DNA from: a bacterium
GTDB taxonomy: Bacteria > CG2-30-53-67
Reading direction: 5' to 3'
DNA: 64,000 bases
NCBI GenBank assembly: GCA_024277725.1
Contig: JAJRUP010000152.1
Coordinates: 520-64,519 of the forward strand
Of the stretch, positions 3,189-62,801 are shown piece after piece. Position 1 is the first letter of the stretch. Every line of letters starts with the position of its first letter. The notes under the pieces are model-generated. The model saw nothing but the letters and a program-made list of their open reading frames with translations. It did not search any database and was not told where the DNA came from. Position numbers and translations under genes: made by a program.

Positions 3189-3824
3189 CTATGTCCCGAG
3201 GAATTCTTTTTCCACCCATCGGGAGTCCACCCTGTGGACCGATCTTCTTTCCGCACGCAGGATCGAAAGGAGATCCTCCAGTGCCTCCTCAAATTCATCA
3301 TTGATCAAAAGATAATCATACTTCTCAAACTGTGCAATCTCCTCCCGCGCCTGCTTCAGGCGTCTGATAATCTCCTCTTCAGGGTCCGAGGCCCGCCCCC
3401 GCAGCCGTTTCTCCAGTTCGGCGAAGGAGGGCGTCACAACAAAAACAAAGACCGCTTTCAGGTCCTTCCGTGCCATCAGCTTCTGCGCACCTCCGGCATC
3501 AACATCGAGGATCACGTCGGAACCTGCTTCCTGGATCTCCCGGACCACCCTTTTGGAAGTCCCGTAGAAATTCCCATGGACCGGCGCCCATTCCAGGAAC
3601 TCCCCCTTCGCCGCCATGTCTTCAAAGACGGTCGGATCGACAAAAAAGTAATCACGACCATCCACCTCCCCGGAACGGGGGGGACGGGTCGTATAAGAGA
3701 TGGAATGGGTTAACCTCGGAAGTCGCTCAACCGCCGCACGGCAAAGCGAGGTCTTGCCCGCACCGGAAGGAGCAGAGAGAACCACCAGGAGCCCTTCCCT
3801 GCCCACATGCGATTCACTCATCAT
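3189..3824 (-). CDS. gmk: guanylate kinase
   Basis: P-loop GAGKTS and YTTRPPR motif, VDGRDYFFV. Listed ORF starts at TTG (3836); ATG ATG at about 3824/3821 is more likely. Confidence 0.9.
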   Translation of the reverse strand: MMSESHVGREGLLVVLSAPSGAGKTSLCRAAVERLPRLTHSISYTTRPPRSGEVDGRDYFFVDPTVFEDMAAKGEFLEWAPVHGNFYGTSKRVVREIQEAGSDVILDVDAGGAQKLMARKDLKAVFVFVVTPSFAELEKRLRGRASDPEEEIIRRLKQAREEIAQFEKYDYLLINDEFEEALEDLLSILRAERRSVHRVDSRWVEKEFLGT

Positions 3825-3900
3825 GGAATAGTTCAAGAAGATCGATTAGAGTAAAATCCAGCAATCCATAATCGAAAAAAGAGGTGTAGACGGCAAATCC

Positions 3901-4200
3901 TCAGGATCCGGAAGAAGAAATTTCCTTTTTGCCGCCGGACTCAAAGGTCTCCTTTTCCGCCTTGGTAAAGAACCGCTGGCTGATGGTTTCCGCCTGCACC
4001 GCGGAAAGAATGACATGATCACTGTCCGTGACCAGGATGGCCCGCGTCCTTCTCCCCTGCGTGGCGTCGATCAGCTTTCCCGACCCTTTTGCCACTTCTT
4101 TCAATCTCTTCATAGGAGCGGAACTCGGCGTCACCACCGCCACAATCCGTTCCGCCACAACGACGTTTCCGTAACCGATGTTGATAAGATCTTTTGTCAT
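3901..4200 (-). CDS. DUF370 / RemA-family protein
   Basis: [33 protein letters not shown] is the typical RemA/DUF370 N-terminus. Conserved yicC-remA-gmk order. Start chosen at the internal Met. Confidence 0.7.
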
Positions 4201-5163: not shown

Positions 5164-5243
5164 CCTTGATCCTTGAATACGATTTTGATCTGAAGAATTC
5201 GTTTGCAACTGTTCTATAACGGCACAGTAATAAGTCCCCGCTA

Positions 5244-5346
5244 CAAGGCGCGAAGGTTTTGAGGAGTGAAGCGTACTTTTCCCGTACGCCGCAACGATCT
5301 TAAAACCTGATATACGAAGTAGATGGACTTTTTACGAAGCCGTCAT
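5244..5346 (+). repeat. copy A of a ~103-bp paralogous intergenic element (candidate structured RNA)
   Basis: caaggcgcgaaggttttgaggagtgaagcgtacttttcccgtacgccgcaacgatcttaaaacctgatatacgaagtagatggactttttacgaagccgtcat. About 85% identical to 62681-62783. Stem 5254-5263 pairs with 5299-5308. Confidence 0.5.
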
Positions 5347-5434
5347 GAATTTAACGGATTATAGATTGTATTCAGGATATTGTCAAATCAGTTTTACCTT
5401 TACAAGCGAATAATTAGATTTTAAACTTCTTTTC

Positions 5435-7159
5435 ATGGATTCTTTCATCATCAAAGCCATCCGGGATGAATGGTGGACGATACTTCCGGCAGCTCGGATT
5501 CAACGGATCACCGAGATCCGTCAAAACGAGTTTCTCTTTATCCTGCGCACTCCCGGGCGGAACCGGAAGGTATTGATTTCCTGCAATCCTTCCCACCCGT
5601 CCCTCCACCTGACGGACGCCGACTTTCAGGCCGTCTCTCCTCCCTCCCCCTTCTGCATGGTGCTGAGAAAACATTTGACCGGCGGCACCCTGCAGGAAAT
5701 CTCTCTGCCCCCCCTGGAGCGGATTCTGACGCTCACCATACACCGGCGAAAGGAATCGGGACGGCTGCAAAAAATACATCTCATCATTGAGATCATGGGC
5801 AGGAGGAGCAACCTGATCCTCGCCGACCCGGACACGGGCAACATCGTCGATTGTGCCCGGCATATCCCCGGGGAACAGAACCGATTCCGTCAACTTCTTC
5901 CGGGACACCCCTACATAGCGCCCCCCCGTCCCGGAAAGATCGACCCCCGACATCTCACCGCAGCCGACATCCCACACAATCTTCAGGAAAGCGGGTCACC
6001 CCATCAATGGGTTGTAGAGCAAATCCGGGGATTCAGCCCCCTTCTCGCAAAAGAAGTCCTTTCCCGCAGCCGACGGAACGGCATCCTCCCCGTCATTGAG
6101 AGACTCATGGATGACTATGATGCGGGACGTTTCGAGCCGGCGATCTACCGTTCCCCCGATGGGTGCAGACGGATCCTGAGCGCATGCCGGCTCGATCACC
6201 TTGCGGATTTTACAAGGATTCCCTGTGACACGATGAATGATGCCGCCGACCGTCATCGGGAGATGTCCCTTACGACGGAAGAAGTCAACCCGGCCCGTTC
6301 ATCCCTCTCCAGGGCCCTCGAAAAAGTGATCGCAAAACAGGAAAGGATCCTGGCGTACATCGAAAAGGACCGCACTGCCTGCAAGGACCTGGACCGGCTG
6401 CGGCAGACGGGGGAATGGATACAGGGAAACCTCTATCGATTAAAAAGAGGCATGACGGAAGCCGAATTAATCGACCCGATGGGAAAGGAGCCCCGTCCGT
6501 TACGGGTCGCCCTCGATCCGCAACTCGCCCCCTATGAAAATGCACAACGCTATTTCCGGCGCTACCGGAAACTTCAAAGGATGCAGGCGGCGACCGAAAA
6601 CCGGTTCAGCAAGATTACCGGGGAACTGGAATATCTCCTGCAGGTCCGGGAAACCGTCCGGCAGGCCGAGACATTAGAGGACCTCCAGGAGATCCGGGAG
6701 GAACTGGCCGCCGGAAAATACCTCCCCCCTTCCCGGCAGAAAAAGAAGAAGAAAAAGAAACAACAGATCCGGCCGCCCCGCTGTTATCTCTCCTCGGCAG
6801 GGCACATCCTCCTGGTCGGCCGGAACAACCACGACAATGATCGCCTGACCACCCGCATTGCACACCGGGAAGACCTCTGGTTTCATGCCCAGGGACTTCC
6901 CGGCGCCCATGTGATCCTGCGCAATCCACAAAGAGATGAGATTTCACCGAAGGTGCTCCATGAAGCGGCGCTCCTCGCCGCCTACTACAGCCGGGGGAAA
7001 GATCACCCCAAGGTCCCCGTGGTCTACACCCTCCGCAAACATGTCAAGAAACCTCCGGGGGCGAAACCGGGAATGGTTCTCATTCATCACGAGAAGACCC
7101 TCCTCGTCGTCCCCCGGAAAGAGGATCTCCCCACCCCCTGCCCGGTAGAGGAATCCTGA
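5435..7159 (+). CDS. rqcH: NFACT-family RNA-binding protein (FbpA/Rqc2 homologue; ribosome quality control RqcH-like)
   Basis: 574 aa. N-terminal NFACT-N (ILRTPGRNRKVLISCNPSHPSLHLT), coiled-coil middle, C-terminal DUF814/NFACT-R (GLPGAHVIL...AAYYS). Contains a KKKKKKKQQ tract. Confidence 0.75.
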   Translation: MDSFIIKAIRDEWWTILPAARIQRITEIRQNEFLFILRTPGRNRKVLISCNPSHPSLHLTDADFQAVSPPSPFCMVLRKHLTGGTLQEISLPPLERILTLTIHRRKESGRLQKIHLIIEIMGRRSNLILADPDTGNIVDCARHIPGEQNRFRQLLPGHPYIAPPRPGKIDPRHLTAADIPHNLQESGSPHQWVVEQIRGFSPLLAKEVLSRSRRNGILPVIERLMDDYDAGRFEPAIYRSPDGCRRILSACRLDHLADFTRIPCDTMNDAADRHREMSLTTEEVNPARSSLSRALEKVIAKQERILAYIEKDRTACKDLDRLRQTGEWIQGNLYRLKRGMTEAELIDPMGKEPRPLRVALDPQLAPYENAQRYFRRYRKLQRMQAATENRFSKITGELEYLLQVRETVRQAETLEDLQEIREELAAGKYLPPSRQKKKKKKKQQIRPPRCYLSSAGHILLVGRNNHDNDRLTTRIAHREDLWFHAQGLPGAHVILRNPQRDEISPKVLHEAALLAAYYSRGKDHPKVPVVYTLRKHVKKPPGAKPGMVLIHHEKTLLVVPRKEDLPTPCPVEES

Positions 7160-7169
7160 AAGAACGTTG

Positions 7170-8444
7170 TCAGGGATAGAGCCCCCGGGCCAGCATGGCA
7201 TCGGAAATCTTGCGGATCCCCTTGATGAGTGCCGCCGTCCGCATGCTGATCTTTTCCCTTTCGGCAATGCCGTAGACCTCATCAAAGGCGTGAGTAATGA
7301 TCCGTTTCAACTGCATGAGAACTTCATCGATTTCCCAGAAGAAGTTCTGCAGGTCCTGGACCCACTCGAAATAGGAGACGATGACCCCCCCCGAGTTTGC
7401 CAGGATATCGGGAATGACAAAAACCCCCTTATCGTTCAGAATCCGGTCTGCCTCAATCGTCATCGGCCCGTTGGCCCCTTCGGCTACGATCTTCGCCTGG
7501 ACGCGGTCTGCATTCTTCTCATGGATCACTCCCGAAACAGCGGCGGGGATCAGGACATCACAGGGGAGGGCCAGAAGTTCTTCATTGGTAACGACATCCC
7601 CCCCTCTGAAGCAGGAGAAATTTCCATGTTCCCTGTGACAAGCAACAAGATCGTCGTAGTTCAGTCCGGAAGGATTGTAGATCCCCCCCTTGGAGGTGCT
7701 GACGGCCACCACCGTGCCGCCCATCTCCTCGATCGTCTTTGCCGCATTGGCACCGACATTCCCGAAACCGTGCAGAGCAAAAGTCGTCTCTTTCCCGATT
7801 CCGCTTCCCCTCTTCTCCAGTGCCTTGACAACGGTATAGACCACGCCCCTGCCCGTCGCCTCGCTCCGTCCCTGGGAACCTCCCACCACAAGTGGTTTTC
7901 CCGTCACCACGCCGGGCACGACATGTCCTTTCTGCTGGCTGTAGGTATCCATCAACCAGGCCATGACCTGCTCGTTCGTCCCCATGTCGGGAGCCGGGAT
8001 ATCCTTCTCCGGACCGATGATATTCACCAACTCCGCCGTGAAGCGTCGCGTCAGATGCTGCAGTTCATGCCGGGAAAGTTCGTGAGGATCGACCGTAACC
8101 CCACCCTTGGCTCCTCCGAGGGGAAGACCGACAAGGGCGCATTTCCAGGTCATCAGCATGGCCAGGGCCGCTGTTTCACCGATCGTCACCTCGGGATGAT
8201 AACGGATACCGCCCTTGAAAGGACCGAGGACATCATTGTGCTGCACCCGGTAACCGGCAAAGATCTTCACATCACCGTTGTCCATGCGCACCGGGATGGA
8301 GATGATCACGGAGCGGTCCGGAACCTGCAAACGATTCACAATGTTGGGATCAAGATCGATACGTTTTGCCACCTCCATAAACTGCTTCGTCACATTCCGG
8401 CAGGCCGGACATTCCCAGATCGTATGACACGACTTCATCTCCAT
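7170..8444 (-). CDS. gdhA: Glu/Leu/Phe/Val dehydrogenase (glutamate dehydrogenase)
   Basis: GGIRYHP, GLPLGGAKGG, GFGNVG Rossmann motif. ORF extends to 8474 with an unusual N-terminal CHTIWECPAC segment. Confidence 0.85.
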   Translation of the reverse strand: MEMKSCHTIWECPACRNVTKQFMEVAKRIDLDPNIVNRLQVPDRSVIISIPVRMDNGDVKIFAGYRVQHNDVLGPFKGGIRYHPEVTIGETAALAMLMTWKCALVGLPLGGAKGGVTVDPHELSRHELQHLTRRFTAELVNIIGPEKDIPAPDMGTNEQVMAWLMDTYSQQKGHVVPGVVTGKPLVVGGSQGRSEATGRGVVYTVVKALEKRGSGIGKETTFALHGFGNVGANAAKTIEEMGGTVVAVSTSKGGIYNPSGLNYDDLVACHREHGNFSCFRGGDVVTNEELLALPCDVLIPAAVSGVIHEKNADRVQAKIVAEGANGPMTIEADRILNDKGVFVIPDILANSGGVIVSYFEWVQDLQNFFWEIDEVLMQLKRIITHAFDEVYGIAEREKISMRTAALIKGIRKISDAMLARGLYP

Positions 8445-8691
8445 AAGAGGTCTCCTTTCGGCAGGTTTGATCACATCCTACACCAAGCAGCGACAGGAGG
8501 CAACTTGAGGGTTTCCGCCTGCAAAAAGTCTGCAGAACTGCCTTTCGTCTCTCATTTAGGGAACGTACCCGCAAAAGGCCGGAAGAAAATTTTCCTCTTT
8601 CGGCCCGGCGGCGGGTATGTTATAAAAAGCAGAAAAGGAAAGAATCGACGGATTCTTCATCATCACCCGCACAACATCAACCAATTTCGGC

Positions 8692-10047
8692 ATGCACAGC
8701 ATTCCCCATGCCGCAACGTATCTATCATCAATGACTTCTCTGGAAAAATACAATCATTCCGTCCGGCGACATCACCGGTGGAACACCTCCGTAGGGTGGT
8801 TGGACGGGATCTTCTTCGCCCTCGGTGGAAGCCTGGTATCGCATATTACCATTCTGCCGATTTTTCTCCGTCTCCTCACCGAAAGCAAGTTGATCATCGG
8901 ACTGGTCCATACCTTCACCATGGTGGGAATCTTCTTTCCCCAGATCATCTCTGCACATCATATCGAGTCAATGCCCCTGAAAAAGGGACTGGTTATCCTG
9001 ATCTGGGCCGTCATGCGCCTCCCCTGGCTGGTCCTGGCCCTGATTCTGCCCTTGATGGTCCACCTTCCCCCCCCCTGGCCGGTGGTGATCTTCCTCCTGC
9101 TCTACCTCGTCTTCACCTTCGGCTGGGGGTTCGGTATTCCTCCCTGGCTCGACATGGTCGGCCGGATGATTCTCCCCCAAAAGCGGGGAGCCTTTCTCGG
9201 GATCCGTTTCACCCTCGGACGGATCTTCGGCATGATCGGCGCACTTTTTTCCATCTACCTGATTGAGGCCTATCCCTTCCCCTACAACTTTGCCCTCTGT
9301 TTCGCCGCCGCCTTTATCTTCATGAACATTTCTCTCTTCTTTTTCGCTCTGACCCGTGAGGTTCCTTACCCCGTCGTAAAGAAAAAAATTGCCTTTCTCG
9401 ATTTCATGCGCGCCCTGCCGGATGTCTTCCGGCGGGATCTCAATTTCTTCTATTACAACATCTCCTTTGCCCTGATCGCCTTTACGAACCTGACCCTGGC
9501 ATTCTATTCGGTCTATGCCGTGGAACGTTTTTCCCTGCCGAGCAGTTCCGCCGGGATTTTCACCACCGTCTTCATGGGCTCCCAGGCTGTTACAGGAATC
9601 GTCTGGGGATTTCTGGGAGACCGGCGGGGACATAAGTTCTGCCTGGTCCTCTCCGCGACCATGAGTATTCTGGCGGCAGTGACCGCCTACAGTGCGCCCT
9701 CGGCAACGTTCTTCTACGCCACTTTCTTTTTCGCCGGCGGGTATATGAGCGGCGCCCTGATCTCCAACATGAACATTGTTCTGGAATTCTGCTCCCCCGA
9801 AGAACGCCCCCTCTATATCGGTCTTTCCAACAGTTTTGCTGCTCCGGTCTTTATCGTCTCCCCTCTTCTCGGCGGATGGATCGTCGATCACTTCTCCTAC
9901 CGGACGGCTTTCGCAACCAATGCCATTCTTACGTCAATCGGCCTGATGGTTCTCCTCTTTTTTGTCAAAGACCCTCGCCGTATCCCCCGGCAGAAAACCT
10001 GTGAAACCGAACAGGGAGATTCCCAAAACAGACAACCTGTGATATGA
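8692..10047 (+). CDS. MFS transporter
   Basis: 451 aa with about 12 hydrophobic helices and MFS-like loop motifs (GDRRGHK). Confidence 0.7.
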   Translation: MHSIPHAATYLSSMTSLEKYNHSVRRHHRWNTSVGWLDGIFFALGGSLVSHITILPIFLRLLTESKLIIGLVHTFTMVGIFFPQIISAHHIESMPLKKGLVILIWAVMRLPWLVLALILPLMVHLPPPWPVVIFLLLYLVFTFGWGFGIPPWLDMVGRMILPQKRGAFLGIRFTLGRIFGMIGALFSIYLIEAYPFPYNFALCFAAAFIFMNISLFFFALTREVPYPVVKKKIAFLDFMRALPDVFRRDLNFFYYNISFALIAFTNLTLAFYSVYAVERFSLPSSSAGIFTTVFMGSQAVTGIVWGFLGDRRGHKFCLVLSATMSILAAVTAYSAPSATFFYATFFFAGGYMSGALISNMNIVLEFCSPEERPLYIGLSNSFAAPVFIVSPLLGGWIVDHFSYRTAFATNAILTSIGLMVLLFFVKDPRRIPRQKTCETEQGDSQNRQPVI

Positions 10048-16350: not shown

Positions 16351-16679
16351 ACCTAACTCCCGCGGCGCTCAGCATCGCTTTTTTACGGCAAAGCCCGAAA
16401 AAGCCTTTCCGGACTTTCCAGTCAAACCTAAAGCTTACAGATTTTATTGATTTATTATACCTCTGTCAAGAAAATAAAGTACGCCATTCCTTGATGTCTT
16501 CGTAAGAAGTCATCTTCAGGCCGAGGGCGGGTAAGCCCCGGCCTGGGGTGGGGGTGGAACCATTTGAATTGACTTCAAATGGCGGGGGAGGAATCGCCTC
16601 CCCCGCCTCGTAAAAAGGCGTTCTTCGACTTTTTACGAGGTCATCATTCCTGAAAGAGGAGAAACTGCCGGTAAGGAAA

Positions 16680-62613: not shown

Positions 62614-62680
62614 GAAATCCTTTCCCTAAATGCATAGTATAAAGTCTGATTTCATACGGCAAGGTAAAAAGCTCCGGATG

Positions 62681-62783
62681 CAAGGCGCGAAGATTTTGTG
62701 GAGTGAGGCGTACTTTTTTGTACATCGCAACGAACACAAAATCTGATAAACGCAGCAGACGGACTTTTTACGCAGCCGCCATA
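62681..62783 (+). repeat. copy B of the ~103-bp paralogous intergenic element
   Basis: caaggcgcgaagattttgtggagtgaggcgtacttttttgtacatcgcaacgaacacaaaatctgataaacgcagcagacggactttttacgcagccgccat. Stem 62691-62700 pairs with 62735-62744. Compensatory changes relative to copy A. Confidence 0.5.
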
Positions 62784-62801
62784 GAAATATTGCAGGACTC
62801 G

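Follow-up and report, generated by a model that had tools for sequence, protein, structure and literature searches.

What are the two similar sequences of about 103 nt that lie in separate intergenic spacers of one bacterial contig, and whose stems change in step between the copies? The contig is JAJRUP010000152.1 (assembly GCA_024277725.1), of which we analysed positions 520-64,519, a window of 64,000 nt; all window coordinates are relative to its start. We confirmed two plus-strand copies, A (5244-5346) and B (62681-62783), the first between yicC and rqcH and the second between tsf and pyrH, gene names that agree with the Pfam matches of relatives at these loci (YicC-like, NFACT, EF_TS and AA_kinase). 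The original prediction took the pair for a small structured RNA family, that is, for discrete small-RNA genes of ~100 nt. [quoted passage not shown] The prediction itself had named a mobile-element origin as the finding that would count against it, and this is essentially what we observe, as the element is itself mobile. Elements of this kind are ordinary, although the family itself appears to be undescribed.

Insertion sites in relatives and phages

A small-RNA gene should occupy a stable, vertically inherited locus, and both window loci are instead empty in close relatives. The tsf-pyrH spacer measures 188 nt in the window versus 15 nt in L027, 15 nt in L028 and 0 nt in L029, where L-numbers denote comparison loci and contigs from relatives, metagenomes and viral contigs. 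Tsf of these three loci is 81-91% identical to that of the window, and the coding flanks align at 75-88% on both sides. The yicC-rqcH spacer measures 271 nt in the window and in L049 (filled, 97 bits) versus 109 nt in L048; the window and L048 are separated by a clean 163-column gap inside an otherwise near-identical spacer, and the empty site reads ...ACTTGTT ATGATTTGACC GGATTATAG. As L027 and L048 both come from GCA_964420895.1, which carries the copies at L011 and L001, that genome has the family, yet not at the A and B sites.

Three sites in phage contigs could be compared in the same way. Site 1, upstream of the terminase gene, holds the element in four contigs (L035, L038, L033 and L039) and is empty in two (L043 and L045). 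At site 2 the element is present in L038, a lone right arm is left in L045, and a third contig has a chimera of the element's left end and a foreign core. At site 3 the element is present in two phages and an unrelated palindrome in a related phage; several kinds of intergenic hairpin seem to be in competition for the same sites in phages.

Direct repeats flank the inserts. They read GCCATCAATCAT in L035 (12/12, a duplication of the first four terminase codons), (C/T)ATGCTTTGATGA in L038 (12/13) and TCATGATTG in L011 (9/9), and around copy A they are diverged copies of ATGATTT(GACC), 7-11 bp long, with the target read from the empty L048 site. The inserts also deteriorate: copy A is 89.6% identical to its L049 orthologue within the insert versus 97.0% in the flanks (spacer plus gene starts), the L028 copy lacks conserved loop bases that its orthologue in L029 has kept, and truncated, nested and chimeric copies occur (L001, L023a and L036). 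These comparisons show that the element enters intergenic DNA and the very ends of genes and decays once inserted, and that several of the inserts lie between direct repeats of varying length (~7-13 bp).

Anatomy and structural conservation of the hairpin

The likeness of the two copies holds, at a lower figure than the roughly 85% first given: 85 of 104 aligned columns match (81.7%, 5244-5346 against 62681-62783). Within the 64 kb, the conserved end pair was found at the A and B sites only, and none of 100 shuffles gave two or more matches. A covariance model run over the window with its filters off scored copy B at 124 bits and copy A at 101.9 bits, with a runner-up match at 15 bits. Similarity between the copies runs ~35-55 nt further to the left, to ~5187/5191 in A and 62628 in B. 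The predicted element of ~103 nt is therefore a genuine repeat whose extent had been underestimated, being the inner core of a palindromic element of ~155 nt. The element (~154-158 nt) is non-coding; it lies between called genes and has no long open reading frame confined inside it. Its parts, and the repeats that flank it, are as follows.

5179-5186, no strand: left flanking direct repeat of copy A, ACGATTTT, a diverged version of the target ATGATTT(GACC), 7-11 bp
5187-5344, plus strand: copy A, the whole mobile element, ~154-158 nt with its left end at 5187-5191, in the yicC-rqcH spacer; the 163-column insert relative to L048
5187-5209, plus strand: outer-left terminal repeat of copy A, GATCTGAAGAATTCGTTTGCAAC, which repeats the arm motif directly in degenerate form and is the right arm's inverted partner
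5219-5237, plus strand: inner left arm of copy A, ACGGCACAGTAATAAGTCC, paired with the right arm as outer helix P0 (minimum-free-energy fold)
5244-5322, plus strand: conserved core of copy A, with P1 (UAC/GUA and GCG/CGA), P2 (5254-5263 with 5299-5308), the P3 hairpin (5271-5289) and internal loops GGAGUGA and CGCAACGA; it covers most of the interval originally marked
5325-5344, plus strand: right arm and right terminal repeat of copy A, GGACTTTTTACGAAGCCGTC, the "3' module" of the prediction
5345-5351, no strand: right flanking direct repeat of copy A, ATGAATT
62628-62801, plus strand: inserted block of copy B (174 nt) in the tsf-pyrH spacer, with the element proper at ~62628-62780 and 21 further nt (62781-62801) to its right
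62656-62675, plus strand: inner left arm of copy B, ACGGCAAGGTAAAAAGCTCC (fold of 62646-62792)
62681-62759, plus strand: conserved core of copy B, with P2 (62691-62700 with 62735-62744) and the P3 hairpin (62708-62725)
62761-62780, plus strand: right arm of copy B, GGACTTTTTACGCAGCCGCC

The conserved 3' module GGACTTTTTACGNAGCCG is present as predicted, and its reading changes with the longer element: it is the 3' arm of an outer inverted repeat and pairs with ACGGCANNGTAAAAAGNCC to the left. The whole element thus folds as one rod-like hairpin, which from the outside inward comprises P0, P1 (UGC/GCA and GCG/CGC), the 10-bp P2, the loop GGAGUGA opposite CGCAACGA, and the apical P3. The minimum free energy is -48.1 kcal/mol for copy A (5209-5354, z = -4.3) and -51.3 kcal/mol for copy B (62646-62792, z = -6.2). 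What had been described as a duplicated 7-mer is really a 6-mer, with one copy in P1 and the other in the right arm, and its joint change in both positions fails as a rule of the family, being broken by L011 (ACGCAG then ACGAAG) and L028 (ACCCAG then ACGAAG).

Each end carries an imperfect inverted repeat of ~19 bp (GAYGNCTTCGTAAAAAGTC type), and the left repeat recurs in direct orientation ~27 nt inward of the left end; since it is this inner copy that pairs with the right terminus, the element forms a single rod. Comparison of termini across copies places the true left end outside the hairpin, as a degenerate direct copy of the arm motif; it is in this way that the two ends come to form inverted repeats. 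By hand comparison they match at 16/19 positions in L032 (GATGAATTTGTAAAAAATC against the reverse complement of the right end, GACGACTTTGTAAAAAGTC) and at 15/19 in a third window element treated below, and are degenerate in copy A (~9/18). Between the arms, the conserved core runs in the order GCAAGGCGCG, P2, GGAGTGAGGCGTAC, loop, GTACGCCGCAACGA, the second side of P2, and AACGCNGCAGA.

Compared between A and B, the 10-bp helix shows the three compensatory changes originally described (G-C to A-U, A-U to U-A and G-U to G-C), and selection on secondary structure is borne out by the wider family. Across 24 copies, 21 of 37 pairs have changed on both sides, and none of 500 shuffles reached the covariation score. 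Paired cells account for 83.5% in the model-guided alignment of these copies versus 30-41% in slid controls, an alignment that leans toward the structure, having been fitted to it; support for P2 is under-counted in it because of a one-column register shift. RNAalifold, applied independently to a plain MAFFT alignment of eight copies, recovered the same helices with 14 doubly changed pairs. The outer arms form covarying subfamilies (ACGGCTTCG.../...CGAAGCCGT; ATGGCAAAG.../...GAAGCCAT; CAGGCTGATC.../...ATCAGCCTG; GATTCCGCTC.../...AGCGGAATC).

The choice of the plus strand as the paired one also stood up. Of the cells at aligned helix positions outside P2, 41 are G·U and 11 are A·C, and the plus-strand fold is the more stable in all 11 copies folded on both strands, by 1.4-18 kcal/mol, these copies being related and not independent trials. 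We considered homogenisation of the arms by mismatch repair as a source of the covariation and set it aside, since an enrichment of G·T would not follow from it.

The apical domain (GAGGAGTGAGGCGTAC, loop, GTACGCCGCAACGA) hardly varies in any of the copies. One reading is that its palindrome, GGCGTAC-N5-7-GTACGCC, is bound as double-stranded DNA by a dimeric protein, for instance a regulator or a methylase, with the stem conserved as sequence. P3 is indeed almost invariant in the 24 copies, the sequence of its loop varies freely, and the palindrome contains two GTAC sites. However, such variants of P3 as exist pass via G·U (6 cells) to A-U (2 cells), with A·C in only 3 cells, and the conserved loops that flank it are asymmetric. 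A protein site would also leave the extensive co-variation of P0, P1 and P2 unexplained, and we regard this explanation as extremely unlikely.

Family members, transcription and neighbouring genes

In total, 24 copies were recovered by covariance model at 32-126 bits, from contigs of metagenome-assembled genomes (MAGs), metagenome contigs and lambda-like phage contigs. A pattern scan of genomes found a full copy and a tandem truncated-plus-full pair in the Nitrospirota MAG GCA_964420895.1 (L011 and L001) and a divergent copy in a SEEP-SRB2 deltaproteobacterial MAG (L014); a similar scan of metagenome contigs found L022, L023 and L024/L025, the last two being one sequence. The model used to search relatives, built from seven copies, added L028 and L029 (both in the mlaE-mlaF spacer), L049 and a second copy in L023. 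Among viral contigs, a scan for the apical motif returned 15 loci, representing about a dozen distinct copies, with as many as five on a single 50-kb contig. We discarded a Cyanobium coding sequence and other chance sites from the first genome scan, and 8 of the 12 metagenome matches as chance.

The chromosomal hosts are uncultured Nitrospirota and lineages labelled 'Deltaproteobacteria', with copies in the spacers of housekeeping genes. The phage contigs are from genuine lambda-like phages, with genes for the terminase TerL gpA, DnaB, an S49 head protease, major capsid protein E and head decoration protein D. A known Rfam family is not involved: an Rfam search of the window and nine loci gave no match at gathering thresholds and only noise at E values up to 10. 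Additionally, blastn of the copies against GenBank phages, PLSDB plasmids and 5,426 E. coli genomes gave no match. Thus, the element is not ERIC or REP by sequence, and it is absent from cultured phages and plasmids. A literature search by sequence words of the element returned unrelated primers only.

Several members show particular arrangements. In L001 (568-810, minus strand), downstream of a gspE-like gene, a copy cut after GGAGTGA is followed ~90 nt on by a full divergent copy. In L023, a GTP-dependent PEP carboxykinase gene stands between two mutually inverted copies (3779-3941 and 5830-5938), the first with a nested insertion of ~50 nt between P1 and P2. A phage subfamily carries an extra small hairpin, GCGCACCGGAGCTTTCGGCGAC, between P1 and P2 (L035 9443-9580, L037 537-671, L040 7621-7755 and L034 10914-11059), and in the L034 copy the 3' half of P2 has been replaced. 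A chimera in L036 (~9794-10022) joins the left terminal repeat and inner arm of the MITE to a foreign core with a CCCCCTTTGTAAAAGGGGG hairpin, has no right arm, and is flanked by ATTTAAT-type direct repeats. A viral contig, L056 (~9590-9865, reverse strand), holds a very divergent member whose P3 is AUAC/GUAU and whose loops are GAGAGCGAGG and CCGAGCAAAC; the family thus extends beyond what the covariance model detects. L035 (~5896-6064), at the place where L043 and L044 carry the MITE, has a different palindromic insert of ~110 nt with GTAAC/GTGAC-rich repeats.

Transcription at the window loci bears directly on the small-RNA reading. Copy A is flanked by the YicC-like gene on the minus strand and the NFACT/RqcH gene on the plus strand, and a promoter lies just beyond its right end.

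5358-5386, minus strand: consensus sigma-70 promoter TTGACA-17-TATAAT (12/12), outside the element, reading leftward through copy A to yicC

This promoter is conserved in L048 and L049, the spacer being ~97% conserved in the three genomes, and presumably drives yicC-remA-gmk-rpoZ. Copy A was inserted a few bases downstream of it, in the yicC leader; because the promoter points through the copy, transcription of A is expected as the minus strand. At copy B both flanking genes, pyrH and tsf, are on the minus strand, so that the copy is antisense to its host operon and would likewise be transcribed as the minus strand, within tsf-pyrH. Promoter and terminator scans found neither signal on the plus strand at either copy, and inspection of the sequence upstream of the copies revealed no shared promoter-like hexamers at workable spacing. 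The intrinsic terminator scan, whose tool models loops of 3-8 nt only, gave no hit at copy B and none matching the element's hairpin at A.

The idea that the copies are independently transcribed, structured small RNAs on the plus strand is not without support. It draws on the strong covariation and on the strand bias in pairing and fold stability described above, on the purine-rich, invariant internal loops GGAGUGAG and CGCAACGA, and on orientation: at ~18 independent sites, with genes called by a crude open-reading-frame caller, ~14 copies run antisense to the adjoining genes and 4 run sense, so that a plus-strand product would mostly be a cis-antisense RNA. Yet neither a plus-strand promoter at A and B nor conserved upstream hexamers across the copies accompany this orientation, the scans found no terminator after the plus-strand hairpin, and at copy A a consensus promoter reads the opposite strand. 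The loci are moreover non-syntenic, both window sites are empty in close relatives, the copies decay, with A diverging faster than its flanks, and Rfam holds no match. We thus judge this reading very unlikely. Three narrower ideas also fell away: the GA-rich loops do not have the strand order that a K-turn or box C/D-like reading calls for, a sigma-70 promoter in the left extension would have the wrong spacing, and an RNA-OUT-like antisense regulator would lack a start codon as its pairing partner.

The opposite strand offers a different possibility, that of a mobile cis-acting mRNA module. Transcribed as the minus strand and placed directly behind a stop codon, the element would stabilise 3' ends, offer RNase III a processing site or terminate leakily, and phages and hosts would keep it for shaping operon expression. 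In at least nine copies the convergent gene, which in this orientation lies upstream of the hairpin, has its TGA within the right arm, at a distance of exactly 7 nt from the core, and the element evidently either lands at gene ends or supplies them. The sense orientation also places a U-rich tail, for example GACUUUUUAC, after the hairpin, and phage copies fill short gaps by highly expressed genes, that of L034 directly downstream of the major capsid gene and others upstream of TerL. The unrelated palindrome at the same spot in a related phage (site 3) is also as this reading would have it. Against it, the better-pairing strand is the opposite one, four copies are in the opposite orientation, the terminator scan was null at copy B, and related phages do without the element at sites 1 and 2. 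Copy A, in addition, sits in the 5' leader of yicC-remA-gmk-rpoZ, where an efficient terminator would be harmful, and has been kept there in two lineages, which makes an efficient sense-strand terminator unlikely. On balance we think it unlikely both that the element acts in this way and that it is kept for such a role.

Three further observations concern genes near the copies. The RqcH-like open reading frame at 5435-7159 encodes a KKKKKKKQQ run near residue 450, in an A-rich coding tract that could be slippery. Beside rqcH in L049 (5886-9728) are an AEP-TOTE/DEAD-helicase gene and an AbiEi_2 antitoxin-like gene, a group that resembles a defence or mobile island. The phage contig L040 (3364-6280) encodes two adjacent B12-binding radical SAM proteins, one with DUF4070, an odd cargo for a lambda-like phage.

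Movement, known analogues and significance

A third element in the window shares its ends with the family.

16493-16645, plus strand: third element, with the same terminal repeats GATGTCTTCGTAAGAAGTC ... GACTTTTTACGAGGTCATC and an unrelated G+C-rich core

It is flanked by ATTCCTT (16486-16492) and ATTCCTG (16646-16652), a 6/7 match, and its core contains three local hairpins, with a fold of -88 kcal/mol. No further copy of it was found among the sequences compared. The same ends around a different inside are as expected of non-autonomous elements served by one transposase.

We looked for a parent insertion sequence with these termini. Terminus-pattern matches in two viral scans proved to be MITE copies, coding look-alikes (for example, DFLRCH codons) and the divergent L056 member. 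Pfam analysis of 30 phage open reading frames identified one DDE_Tnp_1 transposase, in L044, where an insertion sequence with a 582-aa transposase occupies 6743-8790 inside the phage contig. We rejected it as the parent, as its inverted repeats TTAGCCTGGATTCCCATGT (17/18) are unrelated to the MITE termini.

Several observations sit less comfortably with a MITE. No autonomous insertion sequence with the family termini was found in the viral contig scans or the compared loci. Copy B has no convincing flanking repeat and has ~20 extra nt, the length of the flanking direct repeats varies between 7 and 13 bp among copies, and the outer-left repeat is degenerate in many of them. Across subfamilies the termini are less conserved than the core, the opposite of what a textbook MITE shows, and the strand-biased G·U excess is not explained by cut-and-paste transposition of double-stranded DNA alone. 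Finally, the target duplicated at phage site 1 resembles the element's own right end, which together with the lone right arm at site 2 in L045 makes a more site-specific mechanism possible.

Some of these points would fit an element moved as single-stranded DNA, with the folded plus strand as the substrate of a structure-specific enzyme, either an HUH/Y1 enzyme as in IS200/IS605 and REP/RAYT or a tyrosine recombinase as in integron attC. Strand-biased pairing, a core hairpin conserved above the ends, the orientation bias relative to genes, and the end-like target and lone arm at sites 1 and 2 are all in its favour. However, flanking direct repeats of 7-13 bp are not made by such mechanisms, the copies lie outside cassette arrays, and inspection found neither attC core sites (RYYYAAC, GTTRRRY) nor a GTAG/GTGG REP head. 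By GC skew the window plus strand is probably the leading-strand template, whereas elements of the IS608 type use the lagging-strand template. The features of IS200/IS605-derived PATEs are likewise absent, as a single hairpin spans the element and flanking direct repeats are present. Movement of this kind therefore appears quite improbable to us.

We return to the MITE as the preferred explanation. Under it, a transposase supplied in trans would recognise the shared termini, which would also explain the third element with the same ends and a different core, and phages may carry the family between hosts. The compensatory changes would reflect selection on the single-stranded plus strand, as DNA or RNA, in the element's own life cycle rather than in service to the host. 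At both window loci the element would merely be carried along and, if transcribed at all, would be transcribed as the minus strand.

A more speculative possibility, which we hold to be rather unlikely, is that the apical domain (GAGGAGUGAGGCGUAC, loop, GUACGCCGCAACGA), nearly invariant and strand-biased in its pairing, is a functional single-stranded module and not filler. It could be a folded handle for the moving enzyme, with structure-guided and partly target-matching insertion, an idea hinted at by the resemblance of the site 1 target to the element's own end. Or the domain could be an RNA with an antisense or regulatory role, spread by phages on MITE ends, which would explain both a core conserved above the termini and shared termini around a different core.

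[quoted passage not shown] There it is given as 178-235 bp long, with inverted repeats of ~21 bp and direct repeats of 9 bp (PMC3184786, PMC10969869). Like the window family, it is reported as small and non-coding, from a deltaproteobacterial lineage, with terminal inverted repeats, flanking direct repeats and very stable hairpins, and as lying in operons and intergenic DNA, sometimes overlapping gene ends, with many partial copies (PMC3184786, PMC10969869). Chunjie, as described, is longer than the window family (178-235 bp versus ~155). Our genome pattern scan had no Geobacter record among its matches.

Correia elements of Neisseria and ERIC elements of Enterobacteriaceae are, like the window family, imperfect palindromes with inverted ends (~100-160 bp) whose orthologous intergenic sites may be filled or empty and which are co-transcribed with their neighbours (PMC3184786). 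ERIC also shares with the family a conserved central core. Neither Correia nor ERIC has a known transposase. Both differ from the window family in their hosts and in having no sequence similarity to it (blastn, 5,426 E. coli genomes), and the window family, unlike them, is phage-carried and has a duplicated left terminal repeat. SPRITE, BOX and RUP of Streptococcus pneumoniae are again dispersed, structured intergenic repeats, some of them terminator-like, which cluster and insert into one another (PMC10969869). They differ in their unrelated sequence and host, and no canonical terminator was detected in the window family by our scans.

REPINs, which are REP doublets moved by RAYT, resemble the family as dispersed intergenic hairpins of ~100 nt with compensatory evolution of their arms. 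The arms of the window family, in contrast, are not self-palindromic and have no GTAG/GTGG head, its copies have flanking direct repeats, and no RAYT gene was seen. In integron attC sites it is the folded single strand antisense to the gene that is recognised, with structure conserved above sequence. They resemble the family as imperfect palindromes (60-140 nt) that follow directly on a stop codon with conserved structure. In contrast, the window family has no R'' (RYYYAAC) or R' (GTTRRRY) sites on inspection, has a strongly conserved sequence core, and occurs as single copies in housekeeping and phage spacers without cassette arrays.

These findings remove a false lead, as compensatory changes between intergenic copies, which mimic a regulatory RNA, here come from a mobile hairpin repeat. 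They also give annotators of uncultured Nitrospirota and Desulfobacterota-like genomes, and of their phages, a family to mask, together with its covariance model, termini and insertion behaviour. Since gene ends and 5' leaders are among its insertion sites, the element can move gene boundaries and change operon transcripts. For specialists in mobile elements, a core conserved above the ends and strand-biased pairing are of modest interest. Finally, carriage by lambda-like phages suggests one route by which such repeats may be transferred between hosts.

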